A DNA stretch of 64,000 bases from Elusimicrobiaceae bacterium (GTDB lineage Bacteria; Elusimicrobiota; Elusimicrobia; Elusimicrobiales; Elusimicrobiaceae): positions 51,948 to 115,947 of the forward strand of contig JAFXUJ010000009.1 of the NCBI GenBank assembly GCA_017525025.1. Reading direction: 5' to 3'. Below are positions 45,113-63,896 of the stretch, piece by piece (the first letter of the stretch is position 1; every line of letters starts with the position of its first letter). A model generated the notes under the pieces. The model was given only the letters and a program-made list of their open reading frames with translations, did no database searches and was not told where the DNA came from. Made by a program: the position numbers and the translations under genes.

Positions 45113-45143
45113 TTGACTTAGAGTTTACTCCAACTGCTACAAT
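45113..45143 (+). promoter_or_regulatory. MerR-type promoter/operator (copy 1)
   Basis: TTGACT - 19 bp - TACAAT with dyad TTAGAGT-TT-ACTCCAA in the spacer, directly upstream of the merR-family gene. Confidence 0.85.
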
Positions 45144-45160
45144 ATTTTGTAGGAGGAATT

Positions 45161-45546: not shown

Positions 45547-46161
45547 ATGGTTAAAAAGATACTGATTTTCTTGCTTGTGTTGGCAGCGATTGGAGGTGTT
45601 TGCGCCCTTGTGCATCAGTTAAAAGTTGCTTATAAGAATAAAAAAGAATTGGCCGCTTTTGCACAGGCGGAAACGTATACCGCCAATTTGGGCAAAGTAC
45701 TTGTTGTTTATTATTCTTGGACGGGACATACGCAAGATATTGCCGAGCAAATCGCGGCCCTTACAAAGGGTGATACATACCGCATCCAAACGCAGGAAGA
45801 ATTCAAATCTTCCCCGGCTTTCTACGCGCGGATCAAAAAAGAATTGGGGAATAAAATATATCCGCCTTTGGAGGGAGCTCTGCCGGACATAAGCCAATAT
45901 GATACCGTTTTCGTGGGCGGACCCGTATGGTGGTACACAATGGCTACCCCGCTCTATTCCTTTTTGGGACAAGTAGATTTTAAGGGGAAAAAGGTAATTC
46001 CGTTCTCTACCCAAGGTAGCAACCCGGGGACTTTCTTGGAGGATTTTACTGCCAGTGCCCAAAATGCGCCAGTGGGTACATATGCCAATTTTAATAACGT
46101 AGGCGAGCAATATAAGCAGGCGGTACACAACAAAATCGTGCATTGGCTGAATAATTTATAA
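45547..46161 (+). CDS. Flavodoxin with N-terminal signal/anchor
   Basis: Hydrophobic N-terminus, YYSWTGHT, GGPVWWY, F.T.GS. Confidence 0.85.
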   Translation: MVKKILIFLLVLAAIGGVCALVHQLKVAYKNKKELAAFAQAETYTANLGKVLVVYYSWTGHTQDIAEQIAALTKGDTYRIQTQEEFKSSPAFYARIKKELGNKIYPPLEGALPDISQYDTVFVGGPVWWYTMATPLYSFLGQVDFKGKKVIPFSTQGSNPGTFLEDFTASAQNAPVGTYANFNNVGEQYKQAVHNKIVHWLNNL

Positions 46162-46173
46162 AGGAGATTAACG

Positions 46174-46650
46174 ATGACAAAAACACTCGTAACTTATTTT
46201 AGTGCCAGCGGGGTAACTGCAGAACTAGCCAAACGCTTGGCAAAGGCAGTAAATGCAGATGTATTTGAGATCCGTCCGCAACAACCTTATACGGATGCGG
46301 ATCTTAACTGGATGGATAAGAATAGCCGCAGTACGTTAGAGATGAAAGATTTGTCTTGCCGCCCTGCTATGGTACTGCCTGTACCCGACATGCAAAAATA
46401 TGACGTAGTTTTTGTGGGGTTCCCAGTGTGGTGGTACAGAGAGCCGAGCATTATTGATACTTTTATGGAAGCGTGTAAATGGAACGGACAAAAAGTGATT
46501 CCTTTTGCTACTTCCGGTACAAGCGGTATTGGGGATTCTGGTAAAAATATGCAAAAACTCGCTCCATCTACTACCGTAGAAGCAGGGAAACGGCTGGATG
46601 CAAATACGTCCGAAAGTGCACTTACTGACTGGGCTCAAAAATATTTATAA
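46174..46650 (+). CDS. Flavodoxin
   Basis: YFSASGVT, PYT.ADLNW....SRS..EM, GFPVWWY, PFATSG.SG.G. Confidence 0.92.
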   Translation: MTKTLVTYFSASGVTAELAKRLAKAVNADVFEIRPQQPYTDADLNWMDKNSRSTLEMKDLSCRPAMVLPVPDMQKYDVVFVGFPVWWYREPSIIDTFMEACKWNGQKVIPFATSGTSGIGDSGKNMQKLAPSTTVEAGKRLDANTSESALTDWAQKYL

Positions 46651-46659
46651 GGAGAGAAT

Positions 46660-47607
46660 ATGAAGAAACTACTCACAGTATTACTGGGTGCTTTGGTACT
46701 AGTTGCTTGCCAAGCCACGCCCAAACAAGAAGTATCCGCCAACAAACCCGTGGTGTATTTTACGCGGGATATCAGCCCCGAGGGGTTAGTGAAAATCTAT
46801 GATAAAATTTCCGCTAATATTGGCGGTAAAGTGGCTATTAAATTCCACACCGGCGAACCGCACGGCCCGAATATTTTGCCTGTGCCTATGGTAAAAGCTT
46901 TGTGGGAACATATCCCCAACAGTACACTTGTGGAAACGAACGTGTTTTATGATTCCCCGCGCCAAACTACCGAAGGCCACCGCGAAACGTTAAAAATAAA
47001 CGGTTGGACGTTTTGTAAAGTAGATATTTTAGATGAAGACGGGGCCGTTATGCTCCCGGTAAAAGGCGGAAAACACTTTAAAGAAATGTCCATGGGGAGC
47101 CATGTATTAAATTACGATTCTCTAGTGGTGCTTACACACTTTAAGGGACATACCATGGGGGGATATGGCGGCAGTATGAAAAATATCGCTATCGGCATGG
47201 CAGATGGAAAAATCGGTAAAAAAATGATCCACCAAAAAGGCGATCAGCAATGGGGTTATACAGGGGCCCGTTTCCAAGAGAATATGGCGGAATCTGCCAA
47301 GGCTACCGTGGACCATTTCGGCAAGAAAATTGTATACATTAACGTGTTGCGCCGGATGTCTGTTGATTGTGATTGCGCGGGCACTTCCGCCGCCGAACCC
47401 AAAGCACACGATATCGGTATTTTGGCCTCTACAGATTTAATGGCCGTAGACCAAGCGTCTTTGGACCAAGTATATTCCTTGCCGGAACACGAAGGGCATG
47501 ACTTAAAAGAACGCATTGAATCACGCGAAGGATTGCGCCAAATTTCCTATATGAAGGAATTAGGTATGGGAACCGGCGAATATACGTTGGTGGATATTGA
47601 TAAATAA
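46660..47607 (+). CDS. DUF362 domain lipoprotein (Fe-S protein family)
   Basis: Lipobox LVAC, KVAIK.HTGE, HFKGH.MGG.GG.MKN..IG, DCDC, D..AVDQA..D. Confidence 0.85.
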   Translation: MKKLLTVLLGALVLVACQATPKQEVSANKPVVYFTRDISPEGLVKIYDKISANIGGKVAIKFHTGEPHGPNILPVPMVKALWEHIPNSTLVETNVFYDSPRQTTEGHRETLKINGWTFCKVDILDEDGAVMLPVKGGKHFKEMSMGSHVLNYDSLVVLTHFKGHTMGGYGGSMKNIAIGMADGKIGKKMIHQKGDQQWGYTGARFQENMAESAKATVDHFGKKIVYINVLRRMSVDCDCAGTSAAEPKAHDIGILASTDLMAVDQASLDQVYSLPEHEGHDLKERIESREGLRQISYMKELGMGTGEYTLVDIDK

Positions 47608-47632
47608 CCCTTTGAATTAAACAGGAGAGATT

Positions 47633-48151
47633 ATGTCCAAAAATTTAATTATTTACTATTCCCGCAAGGGGGAAAATTACTTTAACGGATCTGTTCGCCC
47701 GATAGAAAAAGGAAATACCGAAATTGTAGCAGAGTATATCCAAGGTGCCGTCGGCGGGGATTTGTTTGAAGTGGATACCGTGAGGCCCTATGCCAAAGAT
47801 TATAGTACGTGCATAGAAGAAGCCAAGCAGGAGTTTCATGCCCATGCACGCCCCGAATTAAAAAAATATCTAACCGATATTTCCGGTTATGATAACGTTT
47901 TTGTTTGCGGGCCGTGTTGGTGGGGTACGTATCCCATGGCCGTATTTAGCCAATTGGAAAAATTAAATTTTACCGGTAAAAAAGTGATTGGCCTTATGAC
48001 GCACGAAGGGAGCGGGCTTGGAAATAGCGAGCGTGACCTTAAAAAACAATGCGTGGGGGCGGCTTTTGGCAAAAGTCTGGCCGTACAAGGCGGCAGTGCC
48101 AAAGAAAGTAAGGCGCAAGTGACTGCCTGGGCGCAAGAACAAATTAAATAA
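47633..48151 (+). CDS. Flavodoxin
   Basis: YYSRKGENY, GNTE, ELK......Y, P.WWGT.PM, THEGSG.G. Confidence 0.9.
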   Translation: MSKNLIIYYSRKGENYFNGSVRPIEKGNTEIVAEYIQGAVGGDLFEVDTVRPYAKDYSTCIEEAKQEFHAHARPELKKYLTDISGYDNVFVCGPCWWGTYPMAVFSQLEKLNFTGKKVIGLMTHEGSGLGNSERDLKKQCVGAAFGKSLAVQGGSAKESKAQVTAWAQEQIK

Positions 48152-60646: not shown

Positions 60647-60677
60647 TTGACTTGGAGTTTACTCCAACTGATACAAT
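60647..60677 (+). promoter_or_regulatory. MerR-type promoter/operator (copy 2)
   Basis: TTGACT - 19 bp - TACAAT with perfect dyad TTGGAGT-TT-ACTCCAA; two differences from 45113-45143. Confidence 0.88.
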
Positions 60678-60704
60678 ATAGTATCTTTTACCAAGGAGCG
60701 TATT

Positions 60705-61871
60705 ATGTTAGGAAACTTTACCTATGCCAACCCTACCAAGCTTTACTTCGGGGATGATTCCCTCAAATACTTAAATGACGAACTGTCCAAGTATGGTAAA
60801 ACCGTACAGCTTATTTACGGCGGCGGTTCCATTAAGAAAAACGGAATTTACGATGCCGTTGTGGCCATTTTAAAGGCCAACGGCAAAACGATTGTAGAAG
60901 ATAGCGGGGTAATGCCCAATCCTACTACCGAAAAATTAAAAGAAGGTATAGAAATCGCCCGCAAGCATAACGTGGATCTTCTCTTGGCGGTAGGCGGCGG
61001 CTCCTGTTGTGATTATGCCAAAGCAGTTTCCGTTTCTGTACATTGCAATGAGGACCCTTGGGAAAAATATTTTATCCGCTTTGAAGAACCCTCTTGCAAG
61101 ATACTCCCCGTCGGGTGTGTGCTGACCATGGTGGGTACAGGCTCGGAAATGAACGGCGGTTCTGTGATTACCAATCACGAAAAACACCTAAAAATTGGAC
61201 ACGTATTTGGCGAAGAAGTAATGCCCAAGTTCGCCATTTTAAACCCCAAATTTACCTTTACGCTTCCTCATAAACAAATGGTGGCCGGCATCTATGATAT
61301 TTTTAATCACATTTGCGAACAATATTTTTCTGGTACCGACGATAACACCAGCGATTATTTAGCCGAAGGCCTCATGCGTTCGGTCATTCACAGTTCTTTA
61401 ATTGCCGTTGAAAATCCACAAGATTACGAAGCACGCTCCAACATTATGTGGTGCGCTACTTGGGCCTTAAATACCTTAATTGCCAAAGGCAAGACCACGG
61501 ACTGGATGGTACACATGTTGGGCCAAGCGGTGGGCGCTTATACGGACGCCACACACGGCCTGACGTTAGCAGCGGTATCCTTGCCCTATTACCGTCATAT
61601 TATGCCCTATGGGTTAGCTAAATTTAGACGATTTGCAATCAATGTATGGGGGGTAAACAGTAACGGAAAAACGGATGAGCAAATAGCCAGTGAAGGGCTT
61701 GCCCAATTAGAAGCGTGGATGAAAAAAATCGGACTAACTTTAAAAATCAGCGAATTGGGAGTCACGCCCGAAATGATAGAAGGTATAGCTGATGCTACGC
61801 TTATTTTAAAAGGCGGTTATAAAGTGCTTGAACGCCCTGAGATTGTACAAATCTTCAAAGAGAGTTTATAG
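60705..61871 (+). CDS. Iron-containing alcohol dehydrogenase (butanol dehydrogenase/YqhD-like)
   Basis: F.Y.NPTKLYFG, YGGGSIK.NG.YD, LLAVGGGS..D.AK, GTGSEMN, HMLG..V.A..DA.HG..LA. Confidence 0.93.
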   Translation: MLGNFTYANPTKLYFGDDSLKYLNDELSKYGKTVQLIYGGGSIKKNGIYDAVVAILKANGKTIVEDSGVMPNPTTEKLKEGIEIARKHNVDLLLAVGGGSCCDYAKAVSVSVHCNEDPWEKYFIRFEEPSCKILPVGCVLTMVGTGSEMNGGSVITNHEKHLKIGHVFGEEVMPKFAILNPKFTFTLPHKQMVAGIYDIFNHICEQYFSGTDDNTSDYLAEGLMRSVIHSSLIAVENPQDYEARSNIMWCATWALNTLIAKGKTTDWMVHMLGQAVGAYTDATHGLTLAAVSLPYYRHIMPYGLAKFRRFAINVWGVNSNGKTDEQIASEGLAQLEAWMKKIGLTLKISELGVTPEMIEGIADATLILKGGYKVLERPEIVQIFKESL

Positions 61872-61880
61872 GAGCAATCC

Positions 61881-62726
61881 ATGAAAAAAGCACTTGTTTG
61901 GATACTGGGAATCAGTATGCTCACCGTCATTTCCTATGCCCAAAAAATACAGGAGAACAAACTTATGACTAACAAAAAAATTGTGCAAACCGCGGGACGC
62001 ACCCAACTGGGCGATTTCGCGCCGGAATTTGCCCACTATAATGATGATGTATTATTTGGAGAAAACTGGAATAATACGGACTTAGACCTTAAAACACGCT
62101 CCCTCTTAACGGTTATTTCACTCATGTCGCAAGGGATAACGGATTCCTCTCTTAAATATCACTTGCAAAATGCCAAAAACCACGGAGTAACAAAGGCAGA
62201 AATCGCCGCCGCCATTACCCATACGGCTTTTTATGCCGGTTGGCCCAAAGCGTGGGCTACTTTTAATTTGGCAAAAGAGGTATGGACGGATAAAGAACCT
62301 GCACTGACGGAAAAAGATAAATATCAAAAAACTATTTTCTTCCCTATCGGCAAACCAAATGATGATTATGCCAAATACTTTGTGGGGCAAAGTTATCTGG
62401 CACCGATCTCCACCAAGCAGGTTACTTTTTATAACGTAACATTTGAGCCCAAATGCCGTAATAACTGGCATATCCACCACGCTACTAAGGGGGGCGGGCA
62501 AATGCTAGTGGCCGTTGGCGGACGTGGCTATTACCAAGAATGGGGCAAAGCGCCCATAGAGATGAAACCGGGCGACGTCATCCATATCCCCGCAAACGTA
62601 AAGCACTGGCACGGAGCCGCGCCGGACAGTTGGTTTTCCCACTTGGCATTTGAGTTAGAGGGGGAAAACACATCTAACGAATGGTTGGAAGCAGTAACAG
62701 ACGAAGAATACGGCAAATTAAAATAG
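61881..62726 (+). CDS. Carboxymuconolactone decarboxylase family plus cupin fusion, with N-terminal signal peptide and second in-frame start at 61965
   Basis: QTAGR.QLG.FAPEFA.YNDDVLFGE, AFYAGWPKAW, NVTFEP.CRNNWH.H, HWHGA....FSH. Confidence 0.88.
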   Translation: MKKALVWILGISMLTVISYAQKIQENKLMTNKKIVQTAGRTQLGDFAPEFAHYNDDVLFGENWNNTDLDLKTRSLLTVISLMSQGITDSSLKYHLQNAKNHGVTKAEIAAAITHTAFYAGWPKAWATFNLAKEVWTDKEPALTEKDKYQKTIFFPIGKPNDDYAKYFVGQSYLAPISTKQVTFYNVTFEPKCRNNWHIHHATKGGGQMLVAVGGRGYYQEWGKAPIEMKPGDVIHIPANVKHWHGAAPDSWFSHLAFELEGENTSNEWLEAVTDEEYGKLK

Positions 62727-62735
62727 GAGCATAAA

Positions 62736-63308
62736 ATGAAAAAAATACTGACACTTTTACTAACTGCTTTATTTGCTACGGCCTGTAATGCCAAACCTAA
62801 GCCACAGGAGACAAAACCTATGAATACAAATAGCAAAATCGCCGTAGTGTATTTTTCTGCCACCGGCACGACCAAACGGGTCGCGCAAAATCTAGCCCAA
62901 GCCATTGGCGCGGACTTGCATGAAATTAAACCGCTTGCCCCTTACAGCAGTGCGGATTTGGATTGGACGAATAAAAGCTCCCGCAGTTCCGTGGAGATGA
63001 ACGATAAATCCTCCCGTCCGGCATTGGCGGCCGGTGATTTTTCTGTCAAAGGATATGACCAAGTGTTTCTCGGCTTTCCAATCTGGTGGGGGACGGCTCC
63101 GAGAGTGGTGCAGACCTTTTTAGAGAGTCAGGATTGTGCGAACAAAACCATTATCCTTTTTGCCACATCCGGCAGTAGCGGTATGGGAAATACAGACAAG
63201 GATTTAAAGCCGAGCGTATCCGCATCCACGAAGATTGTGAAAGGTAAAACGCTAAACGGTAACCCGTCCGTAGAAGAATTAAAAAAATGGGCAGCAACCT
63301 TTCTGTGA
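62736..63308 (+). CDS. Flavodoxin lipoprotein with second in-frame start at 62820
   Basis: Lipobox FATAC; YFSATGTT, PY..ADL.W....SRSS.EM, GFPIWWG, FATSG.SG. Confidence 0.9.
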   Translation: MKKILTLLLTALFATACNAKPKPQETKPMNTNSKIAVVYFSATGTTKRVAQNLAQAIGADLHEIKPLAPYSSADLDWTNKSSRSSVEMNDKSSRPALAAGDFSVKGYDQVFLGFPIWWGTAPRVVQTFLESQDCANKTIILFATSGSSGMGNTDKDLKPSVSASTKIVKGKTLNGNPSVEELKKWAATFL

Positions 63309-63337
63309 CACAAAAATAGTCATCAAGGGTACGTTAT

Positions 63338-63757
63338 ATGATAAAGAAACTATTATTTTTAGTAACAATGCTGATAATTTTATCGGCCTTGTTGCTTAAC
63401 ATAAACAAAACGAAGGAAAAAGATATGAATATAACCGTAAATATTTACTACACCGGAGAAAACGGTAATGCGCGTAAGTTTGTCGAAGAAATGGAACAAA
63501 GTGGTACAGCGGCGGCTATTAGAGCGGAAAAAGGGAACTTAAAATATGAATACTTTTATCCGTTCAACCATAAAGAAACCGTACTTTTGATAGACAGTTG
63601 GGAAAATCAAGCGGCCATAGATCTACATCATCAAACACCCATGATGGAAAAAATTACGGAACTGCGTAACAAATATGACCTGCATATGCGTGTTGAACGC
63701 TATATATCAAACGAGCAAGGGGTGCCCAATAAGGATAAAGCATTTATAAGATCATAA
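63338..63757 (+). CDS. Antibiotic biosynthesis monooxygenase (ABM) family protein with N-terminal anchor and second start at 63425
   Basis: NIYYTG.NG.A.KF.EEM..SG....IRAE.GNL.YEYF.P, LID.W..Q.A.D.HH. Confidence 0.85.
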   Translation: MIKKLLFLVTMLIILSALLLNINKTKEKDMNITVNIYYTGENGNARKFVEEMEQSGTAAAIRAEKGNLKYEYFYPFNHKETVLLIDSWENQAAIDLHHQTPMMEKITELRNKYDLHMRVERYISNEQGVPNKDKAFIRS

Positions 63758-63866: not shown

Positions 63867-63896
63867 GCCTTCTACTTGTTAGGGGGCTTTTATTTT
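63867..63896 (+). terminator. Probable terminator
   Basis: GCCTTCTA / TAGGGGGC stem then TTTTATTTT. Confidence 0.6.

Follow-up and report, generated by a model that had tools for sequence, protein, structure and literature searches.

Paired start sites around the export signals of three consecutive genes in a gut Elusimicrobiaceae operon

Three adjacent genes in one operon of a gut Elusimicrobiaceae bacterium, encoding a CMD-cupin fusion, a flavodoxin and an ABM protein, each carry an upstream SD and ATG, an export signal or anchor and, past the hydrophobic core of that signal, a second SD and ATG in the same frame (codons 29, 29 and 30). The presence of internal SD and ATG pairs after export signals in three genes is not due to chance. 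On the comparative evidence, we consider it probable (about 65%) that internal initiation is functional and yields signal-less cytoplasmic isoforms beside the exported ones, as has been proposed for Escherichia coli speA. The first-pass annotation had described this arrangement for each of the three genes, and all of its coordinates and motifs were recovered as claimed.

The operon and its six start sites

The features below are numbered from the first letter of the window, that is, the whole 64,000-nucleotide stretch of DNA that was analysed; signals were called by a hydrophobicity and charge heuristic and by eye.

60647..60678, + strand: MerR-type promoter, TTGACT-19 nt (dyad TTGGAGT..ACTCCAA)-TACAAT, upstream of the Fe-ADH and the three genes (direct reading)
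60705..61871, + strand: Fe-dependent alcohol dehydrogenase (Fe-ADH, YqhD-like), first gene of the operon, without signal peptide
61870..61883, + strand: gene 1 upstream RBS, AGGAG 61870-61874, 6 nt, ATG 61881
61881..62726, + strand: gene 1, fusion of CMD (PF02627) and cupin (PF07883), 281 aa in the long form and 253 aa in the short form, which starts at 61965
61881..61940, + strand: gene 1 Sec (SPase I-type) signal peptide MKKALVWILGISMLTVISYA, predicted cut before Q21 (heuristic and by eye)
61950..61967, + strand: gene 1 internal RBS, CAGGAG 61950-61955 (Gln-Glu), 9 nt, ATG 61965
62725..62738, + strand: gene 2 upstream RBS, AGGAG 62725-62729, 6 nt, ATG 62736
62736..63308, + strand: gene 2, Flavodoxin_4 (PF12682) lipoprotein, 190 aa in the long form and 162 aa in the short form
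62736..62786, + strand: gene 2 lipoprotein signal MKKILTLLLTALFATA-C, lipobox Cys17 (heuristic and by eye)
62805..62822, + strand: gene 2 internal RBS, CAGGAG 62805-62810, 9 nt, ATG 62820
63325..63340, + strand: gene 3 upstream RBS, AAGGGT 63325-63330, 7 nt, ATG 63338
63338..63757, + strand: gene 3, ABM (PF03992), 139 aa in the long form and 110 aa in the short form, N-terminus a hydrophobic anchor or uncleaved signal
63413..63427, + strand: gene 3 internal RBS, AAGGA 63413-63417, 7 nt, ATG 63425
63867..63887, + strand: intrinsic-terminator-like hairpin and T-run, end of the operon

The promoter has its -35 and -10 hexamers 19 bp apart, a central dyad and a MerR regulator gene nearby, and a near-identical copy at about 45113 in the window precedes that regulator gene, whose product we call only NmlR-like because its score against the NmlR model (122 bits) falls under the cutoff of 175. 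An NmlR/AdhR-like MerR-type promoter ahead of the operon fits a stress regulon. The stop codon of the Fe-ADH gene (TAG) shares bases with the upstream SD of gene 1. A crude scan for sigma-70 promoters inside the signal-coding regions of the three genes found none, leaving an internal promoter that would give a shorter mRNA unsupported.

The gene 1 product matches CMD (PF02627, 72.5 bits against a Pfam gathering threshold of 23), with the domain beginning at residue 48, shortly past the internal Met, and Cupin_2 (PF07883, 30.5 against 27.2 bits); its scores against the NCBIfam equivalogs for PcaC 4-carboxymuconolactone decarboxylase (64 bits) and (R)-mandelonitrile lyase (107.7 bits) are under the respective cutoffs of 155.7 and 140. 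Its signal consists of MKK, 14 hydrophobic residues and SYA, with the predicted cut ahead of the next Q, and signal character is found in all orthologs, the signal sequences themselves being unrelated. Gene 2 matches Flavodoxin_4 (PF12682) at 203.1 bits against a threshold of 24, and position 2 of the PRK07116 flavodoxin model aligns with its residue 31. Its signal runs from MKK to LFATA, followed by the lipobox Cys (..FATAC, codon 62784-62786), and a lipobox ending in AC is present in 119/119 long homologs. A Sec-exported flavodoxin would need to bind FMN outside the cytoplasm, and the role of the long form of gene 2 is putative; structures of the flavodoxin family are available for comparison (PDB 3KLB, 4J8P and 4ICI). 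Gene 3 begins with MIKK and 16 hydrophobic residues without a clear cleavage site, called as an anchor by the heuristic and by eye, and its ABM domain (PF03992, 39.0 bits against 23.1) begins at residue 32.

The claim that the internal Met marks the start of the enzyme domain and the N-terminus of cytoplasmic homologs was borne out by alignments to homologs and to Pfam and NCBIfam models. Cytoplasmic Firmicutes homologs of all three proteins (for example from Ruminococcus flavefaciens L041), which are 65-76% identical in the mature domains, lack a signal peptide, have a single start and begin at the internal Met (M(A/S/T)EKIVQTAGR for gene 1, MSKKLVAYFSASG for gene 2 and MAITINIYYTG for gene 3), with a GGAGG SD at the position of the internal SD.

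Frequency, accessibility and conservation of the internal sites

In this genome, GGAG or GAGG followed after 5-10 nt by an in-frame ATG has a frequency of 0.026% per codon (0.74% per 28-codon window), and 4/271 signal-like proteins carry such a strict-core site at codons 19-46, genes 1 and 2 among them; looser cores (AGGA or AAGG) raise these figures to 2.3% per window and 8/271, all three genes included. These counts are otherwise near background and rule out a genome-wide habit of placing an SD and ATG after signals. The other exported proteins of the sister operon are without an internal SD and ATG, and as a control, another lipoprotein of that operon writes K-Q-E as AAA CAA GAA. The internal sites of genes 1 and 2, described at first pass as near-identical, are indeed the same at 15/18 positions, and both place their ATG 84 nt into the gene.

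Predicted accessibility is high at all three sites: P(unpaired) over positions -18..+12 is 0.60, 0.65 and 0.72 for genes 1, 2 and 3, compared with 0.41±0.10 for random in-frame sites (99th percentile 0.67) and 0.44 for real starts. The internal spacings (AGGAG-9, AGGAG-9 and AAGGA-7) are within the range of the genome's real starts. An SD with a core of at least 4 nt precedes 741/1265 predicted starts, from which SD use by the host was inferred rather than from the anti-SD, the SSU (16S) rRNA being absent from the assembly.

Conservation is clearest in gene 1. Across 24 Elusimicrobiaceae species genomes, its junction always reads CAG, AAG, GAG or TCG plus GAG (giving GGAG), then 6-9 nt and ATG, and GGAG precedes the start codon in 13/13 lineages that are independent at synonymous sites. 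The residue encoded at the SD varies among Q, K, E and S, and the third-position G's are constant, in a genome where GAG, CAG and AAG have shares of 21.7%, 22.8% and 21.6% within their codon families. The 21 other invariant E/Q/K columns of gene 1 are about 84% A-ending, with 0 columns 100% G-ending. At four-fold third positions, the identity of one lineage to another is 0.33 on average, where full saturation would give 0.25. The internal Met is kept in 112/115 long homologs; the 3 exceptions have Val encoded by GTG with AAG or CAG plus GAG 9 nt upstream, and no other neighbour codon of ATG was seen among them. In other phyla, yet other residues of the long forms encode the SD: KGE AAAGGAGAA, KEV AAGGAGGT, RGG AGAGGAGGA, LEA CTGGAGGCA and GR (GGGAGG). 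Methionine aminopeptidase excises Met before A, S or T. One of these three residues follows Met in many cytoplasmic homologs, from which Met would be excised, and the domain therefore needs no Met residue. Selection at the amino-acid level on Gln-Glu or Met is ruled out, since the residues change while the nucleotides stay and Met would be excised in many cytoplasmic homologs.

In gene 3, the internal Met is present in 116/116 close homologs and different residues encode the SD ahead of the ATG (AAGGAA, GGAGGC or AGGAGG, the last as Gly-Gly within the signal c-region), but the exported ABM of a distant Elusimicrobiota family has neither internal Met nor SD. In gene 2, 82/119 close homologs have the internal Met and 37/119 lack it, and about half of the family orthologs are without the internal ATG (GTC, ACG, ATA or CTG instead) or without the SD, which suggests that its internal site acts in part as a decaying relic. 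The losses in gene 2 and the distant ABM mean that the internal site is dispensable in some lineages. The check named at first pass, conservation of the internal SD at synonymous positions, came out in favour for gene 1 in full, for gene 3 among close clades but not in the distant family, and for gene 2 in about half of the family orthologs but not in the remainder. With the same scope, the second SD and its start codon are under purifying selection at the nucleotide level, clearly so in gene 1.

Origin of the signals and alternative explanations

Long forms are almost confined to diderms, and monoderms have the short forms. Cultivable bacteria with a long form include Phascolarctobacterium and Akkermansia isolates. 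At least five separate signal gains are implied, all upstream of the old RBS. The presence alone of an internal SD and ATG therefore proves nothing, because every fresh graft of a signal peptide starts with such an arrangement. The homology breakpoint coincides with the internal RBS and shows recombination at that point, signal cassettes have been swapped between genes (in one relative, the CMD-cupin gene bears the lipoprotein signal of the flavodoxin), and lineages differ in state, being dual, exported-only or cytoplasmic-only. A scan of metagenome contigs gave relatives only at up to 76% identity, and close relatives were taken from a genome search. The literature held nothing specific on this operon or on signal-peptide grafting upstream of a retained RBS. 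In two relatives, the signal peptides are frameshifted (by a 14-nt duplication and a 2-nt deletion) with the second SD, the ATG and the ORF behind them intact. These frameshifts are possibly MAG assembly errors.

An alternative interpretation is that the internal sites are leftover RBSs of formerly cytoplasmic genes, unused today, so that only the exported form is made and the conservation reflects recent grafts and recombination at the junction. The exact match of the internal Met and its SD to the starts of cytoplasmic homologs, the repeated signal gains upstream of the old RBS, the swapped cassettes with their breakpoint at the junction and the decay in gene 2 and the distant ABM lineage are all consistent with this interpretation, and recombination at the breakpoint could help to homogenise the junction. 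We nevertheless consider it unlikely, because gene 1 keeps GGAG and a start codon in every independent lineage despite near-saturated synonymous sites and a codon preference of only about 22%, its ATG is replaced by GTG only, the internal sites are predicted to lie in unusually unstructured RNA and the genomes with frameshifted signals retain an intact ORF behind the second SD.

Another possibility is that the internal GGAG slows elongating ribosomes past the signal peptide and so aids Sec/SRP targeting, with no initiation there. SD-like pause sites early in the mRNAs of membrane and secreted proteins have been proposed, and a GGAG conserved in its nucleotides and fixed in position behind the signal peptide agrees with such a role. 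We regard this explanation as highly improbable: it accounts neither for the invariant ATG or GTG 6-9 nt downstream nor for the match of the second ATG to the start of cytoplasmic homologs; with strict-core sites in only 4/271 signal-bearing proteins, the SD-like site does not serve targeting in general; a ribosome that has reached codon 29 still has the signal peptide within its tunnel; and SD-mediated pausing has itself been disputed. That the upstream ATG and signal are barely translated, the genes being ordinary cytoplasmic enzymes with mis-extended ORFs, would agree with short-form clusters of 253, 162 and 110 aa among the homolog matches (P0028, P0238 and P0291 for genes 1, 2 and 3) and with the two frameshifted signals, but is scarcely credible given AGGAG 6 nt before the upstream starts of genes 1 and 2, an extension that is open and in frame in 22/24 species although its length varies over 27-34 codons, n-, h- and c-regions or a lipobox that are always kept while the extension sequence turns over, and the near confinement of long forms to diderms and short forms to monoderms.

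Proposed mechanism and relation to known systems

Under functional internal initiation, one mRNA from the MerR-type promoter would carry the Fe-ADH, CMD-cupin, flavodoxin and ABM genes, the last three each with two working translation starts. Initiation at the first would give precursors for export to the periplasmic side, that of gene 1 led by a Sec signal, that of gene 2 by a lipoprotein signal and that of gene 3 by a signal anchor. The second SD, encoded in linker codons within an A-rich, unstructured stretch, would bind ribosomes, and initiation at the ATG 84-87 nt downstream of the first would give a signal-less enzyme kept in the cytoplasm, the same form as that of the Firmicutes homologs. 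For gene 1, the predicted N-termini are QKIQENK (exported, possibly pyroGlu) and (M)TNKKIVQTAGR (cytoplasmic). The second site is the RBS that the cytoplasmic gene brought with it on horizontal transfer, the signal having been grafted upstream in diderm lineages; in this view, selection has since retained the old RBS in gene 1, most of gene 3 and part of gene 2. From these patterns we infer initiation at the second ATG, a ratio between the isoforms, their separate compartments, the coverage of both compartments under stress suggested at first pass, and a role in carbonyl or quinone stress.

A broader and more tentative interpretation, which we think possible but doubtful when its parts are taken together, is that diderm gut bacteria repeatedly turn cytoplasmic detoxification genes acquired from Firmicutes into two-RBS genes by means of an exchangeable signal cassette placed between a new and the native RBS; the conserved flanking RBSs might then tune how each enzyme is divided between periplasm and cytoplasm, and might serve as recombination handles that move signal cassettes, or modules of RBS plus mature ORF, between genes and operons. 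It is suggested by the swap of a lipoprotein signal onto the CMD-cupin, the breakpoint at the internal RBS and the toggling of lineages between states.

The closest known cases are the 5'-proximal internal starts of E. coli speA (SpeA-74/SpeA-70), bamA, ivy and yghG, which Meydan et al. (10.1101/520783) identified by ribosome profiling with retapamulin. They share with the genes described here an in-frame internal start within or just past the signal sequence, which was proposed to hold back a fraction of an otherwise secreted protein in the cytoplasm; there too, conservation at synonymous sites served as support. Unlike those starts, which were detected experimentally, the three Elusimicrobiaceae genes are known from sequence alone; they also differ in that the design recurs in three consecutive genes of one operon, the internal site demonstrably goes back to the RBS of a cytoplasmic gene acquired by horizontal transfer, and its conservation extends over several phyla in which different amino acids spell the SD. 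Other in-frame N-terminal proteoform pairs, such as IF2 alpha/beta, ClpB, CheA L/S and SsaQ/SpaO (PMC13515050), likewise use an internal SD and start codon to make two proteins from a single ORF, but these differ by a functional domain or in complex stoichiometry rather than by an export signal, and a switch of compartment is so far a prediction for a few candidates. Eukaryotic dual targeting by alternative start codons gives mitochondrial and cytosolic isoforms (PMC12718117) in a similar layout: translation from the upstream start includes a targeting peptide, translation from the downstream start leaves the enzyme untargeted, and such pairs are needed where a single gene has to supply two compartments. 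Eukaryotes achieve this by leaky scanning; in the three genes described here, 30S subunits would bind independently to a second SD within the coding region.

Evolutionarily conserved internal starts in bacteria are few, and cases in which they split a protein between compartments rest mainly on profiling in E. coli; the three genes would add to the speA-type 5'-proximal internal starts already known. For annotation, the gene 1 models of 281 aa and 253 aa may both be right. As we read them, the three adjacent genes document how cytoplasmic enzymes became periplasmic after transfer to diderms, by the grafting of a signal upstream of the old RBS.

Paired starts in three neighbouring genes

Three closely packed genes encoding a CMD-cupin (gene 1), a flavodoxin (gene 2) and an ABM protein (gene 3) lie 3′ of an Fe-dependent alcohol dehydrogenase gene, and every SD and start motif that the first-pass annotation had reported for them is present at its coordinate. 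Pfam assignments are above gathering thresholds.

60647–60678, 5′ of the operon: MerR-type promoter, TTGACT-19-TACAAT, with a central dyad
60705–61871, + strand: Fe-dependent alcohol dehydrogenase, the gene ahead of the three studied genes
61881–62726, + strand: gene 1, CMD + Cupin_2, 281 aa; AGGAG-6-ATG 61881, then CAGGAG-9-ATG 61965
62736–63308, + strand: gene 2, Flavodoxin_4, 190 aa; AGGAG-6-ATG 62736, then CAGGAG-9-ATG 62820
63338–63757, + strand: gene 3, ABM, 139 aa; AAGGGT-7-ATG 63338, then AAGGA-7-ATG 63425
63867–63887, operon end: terminator-like hairpin

By heuristic signal prediction and gene calling, the N-terminus of gene 1 resembles a cleavable Sec signal (…ISYA↓Q), that of gene 2 a lipoprotein signal (…FATA↓C) and that of gene 3 an uncleaved hydrophobic anchor. 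Pfam and NCBIfam profile models start directly after the internal Met in all three genes, and the match of this Met to the usual start of cytoplasmic homologs, proposed in the first-pass annotation, was borne out, as the Firmicutes M(A/S/T)EKIVQTAGR, MSKKLVAYFSASG and MAITINIYYTG begin exactly there. We propose that a single MerR-controlled mRNA would offer two independent 30S loading sites in each gene, the first yielding a precursor that would be exported and lipidated or anchored and the second a cytoplasmic enzyme without signal. In this scheme the exported flavodoxin would need to acquire its FMN beyond the cytoplasm. Two independent starts per gene, giving exported and signal-less cytoplasmic products, is the reading that we favour, at a probability of roughly 0.65.

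The operon promoter is almost identical to a site at ~45113 preceding an NmlR-like MerR regulator gene. The twin promoters (45113–45144 and 60647–60678) share TTGACT, a 19-nt spacer, the dyad TTGGAGT/TTAGAGT..ACTCCAA and TACAAT; the NmlR-like regulator and a flavodoxin operon lie downstream of the former and the Fe-dependent alcohol dehydrogenase operon downstream of the latter, and the pair resembles a carbonyl/electrophile-stress regulon split in two. A link of the three genes to carbonyl or quinone stress may be drawn from family names and from the NmlR-like regulator, which scores under its curated cutoff. In a profile search, gene 1 fell below the NCBIfam equivalog cutoffs for PcaC and mandelonitrile lyase. 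The source assembly (Elusimicrobiaceae; 1.55 Mb, 17 contigs, 99% complete by marker estimate) contains no SSU rRNA gene, as is typical of MAGs.

Conservation and decay of the internal sites

Homologs of gene 1 at 74–100% identity carry many unrelated signal peptides and retain ‘…QE(K/N)K.M’. Ortholog DNA was compared across 24 species genomes of Elusimicrobiaceae. All 24 have CAG, AAG, GAG or TCG at the junction, then GAG (giving GGAG), 9 nt (6 nt once) and ATG; the residue preceding Glu varies (Q/K/E/S) and its third-position G is constant. GAG, CAG and AAG each account for only ~22% of their own codon family in the genome of the window, and the 21 other invariant Glu/Gln/Lys columns of gene 1 are ~84% A-ending, none of them uniformly G-ending. 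Four-fold degenerate third positions have a mean between-lineage identity of 0.33 (saturation, 0.25), and clustering at >0.55 reduces the set to 13 lineages whose synonymous sites are effectively independent. Met is present in 112 of 115 long-form homologs; the other three have Val as GTG with AAG/CAG-GAG 9 nt upstream in each, and none of the 115 has the ATG neighbours Ile, Thr, Lys, Arg or Leu. The distance from Met to the conserved KIVQTAGR is variable, and many cytoplasmic homologs have Ala, Ser or Thr as the second residue, a context in which methionine aminopeptidase is expected to remove the Met. These patterns indicate that selection in gene 1 acts on the nucleotides forming the RBS and start codon, not on amino acids, and that Met as a residue is not its target.

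Two gene 1 copies have frameshifted signal regions with the internal SD, ATG and the 253-codon ORF intact. One, in genome G055 (L193), arises through a 14-nt tandem duplication (TGTTGCTTGCGTCG); the other, in G070 (L197), through a 2-nt deletion, which leaves a 22-codon upstream ORF in place of the signal region, with its stop 13 nt before GGAG. Each could be a natural cytoplasmic-only variant or an error of MAG assembly; if real, the enzyme there would be obtainable only via the internal start.

Synonymous-site conservation of the internal SD, which the first-pass annotation had named as a check on dual products, holds only in part: it is found in gene 1 (GGAG 6–9 nt before the start codon in 13/13 lineages) and in close homologs of gene 3, and is lost from gene 3 in a distant family and from gene 2 in many relatives. 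Long ABM homologs at ≥72% identity have Met in 116/116, although the signal peptides ahead of it are of four or more kinds, and the SD is spelled as AAG GAA A(A/G)A GAT ATG in seven genomes of the family, as GCG GAG GCA AAA GAT ATG (GGAGG), or as TTA GGA GGA AAT GCC ATG (AGGAGG as Gly-Gly within the c-region of the signal), with one weak case (GTG GAA ACA). In another Elusimicrobiota family (f16, genus g87), distant orthologs (66–71% identity; L246–L255) carry a Sec signal, ..VSYA↓GEEV.., with neither internal Met nor SD, apparently an exported-only state; in L251 the signal-linker region is interrupted by a stop codon. In the flavodoxin, (C/A)AGGAG-9-ATG is retained in the lineage of the window and several others, but GTC, ACG, ATA, CTG or GTG replaces ATG, or the SD is gone, in about half of 20 family orthologs, and Met is missing in 37 of 119 close homologs; the gene 2 site is thus dispensable in many lineages. 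An alternative interpretation, to which we give a clearly minor share of the probability, is that the internal SD and ATG are an unused relic; this agrees with gene 2 and with ABM in the distant lineage but is at odds with the saturation result for gene 1, where the lack of decay is the more telling because gene 2 displays it.

Chance expectation and accessibility

Among ~1265 genes called crudely across the whole assembly, in-frame GGAG/GAGG lies 5–10 nt ahead of an ATG at 0.026% of internal codons (0.74% per 28-codon window), and 4 of 271 signal-like proteins have this strict site at codons 19–46, genes 1 and 2 being two of the four. With the weaker cores AGGA/AAGG also counted, the rate rises to 2.3% per window and the count to 8 of 271, all three genes included. 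Given these low rates, sites in three adjacent genes are not a background property of the genome. Exported proteins encoded by the sister MerR operon have no internal site, and one of them spells Lys-Gln-Glu with the common codons AAA CAA GAA. That operon (45547–48151) encodes three flavodoxins, one membrane-anchored (204 aa) and two cytoplasmic (158 and 172 aa), together with a 315-aa lipoprotein without an NCBIfam match; an internal SD and ATG after the signal is absent from its flavodoxins and this lipoprotein. Predicted mean probabilities of being unpaired (−18 to +12, 240-nt context) are 0.60, 0.65 and 0.72 at the internal sites of genes 1, 2 and 3, compared with 0.41 ± 0.10 at random in-frame positions (99th percentile 0.67) and 0.44 ± 0.11 at the real starts of the genome.

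We consider it very improbable that the motif is an SD-like pause helping targeting, which would leave the ATG/GTG unexplained and sits poorly with a site that is not general among exported proteins of the genome. That the short form alone is made is hardly credible either, given the strong upstream SD and signal features kept in frame by selection. The remaining probability goes to mixed or unforeseen causes, such as isoform choice via an internal transcript start, of which a simple promoter scan gave no hint.

Origin of the internal start and possible exchange of signals

The CMD-cupin ORF occurs at 65–83% identity in Firmicutes, Bacteroidota, Verrucomicrobiota, Melainabacteria, Desulfovibrionaceae and Elusimicrobiota (L021–L180), which suggests that it has spread widely by horizontal transfer in the gut and rumen, among bacteria of at least six phyla. 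Monoderm copies are short and signal-less with GGAGG 5′ of Met, and diderm copies are mostly long. In a FastTree phylogeny of 170 mature domains (local supports only), long forms fall in five separate positions, namely a well-supported clade of Elusimicrobiaceae, Melainabacteria and Akkermansia, a Bacteroidales clade, and isolated placements of Phascolarctobacterium, L104/105 and L124, which implies at least five signal gains. The old SD persists in SD-using long-form lineages as AAAGGAGAA (K-G-E), AAGGAGGT (K-E-V), AGAGGAGGA (R-G-G), CTGGAGGCA (L-E-A) or GGGAGG (G-R), and is weaker in Akkermansia copies (AAAGAAGAA, CAGGAA). SD-led initiation is not generally used by Bacteroidales, whose long forms (L080, L088, L099, L165, L178, L179) keep Met (…xMA↓QQKIV) without an upstream SD; their short signal is joined straight to the ancestral start (..xMA↓QQKIVQTAGR), with Met at −2 relative to the predicted cleavage site.

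In genome G051, the CMD-cupin gene (L186) bears a flavodoxin-type lipoprotein signal (MKKLLTLLLTALFATACNAKPN..) matching the gene 2 signal of the window at 55 of 62 nt, and looks as though a signal-peptide cassette had been copied between genes with the two RBS regions as its limits. The flavodoxin downstream of it has a matching signal, and this signal type is also found on CMD-cupin clusters P0017, P0021, P0024–26 and P0035. Between close relatives (L181 versus L182/L185/L186), the mature ORF is 90–92% identical in nucleotides and the signal-coding part and both flanks ~60–68%, which places a homology breakpoint at the internal RBS and makes ‘RBS + mature ORF’ look like a module mobile between operons. 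The G051 signal and this breakpoint are evidence that signal cassettes may be exchanged between two RBS flanks.

Compartment-splitting by a 5′-proximal internal start has been proposed from retapamulin profiling for Escherichia coli speA (SpeA-74/70), bamA, ivy and yghG (10.1101/520783) and is taken up in a 2026 review on N-terminal proteoforms of bacteria (PMC13515050); alternative-start dual targeting is the eukaryotic analogue (PMC12718117). The three genes have the sequence-level hallmarks of the E. coli cases and by analogy may work like these and the eukaryotic examples. What would set them apart is a design common to three consecutive genes, an internal site traceable to an ancestral RBS and conserved across phyla, and the evidence of signal cassette exchange between RBS flanks.
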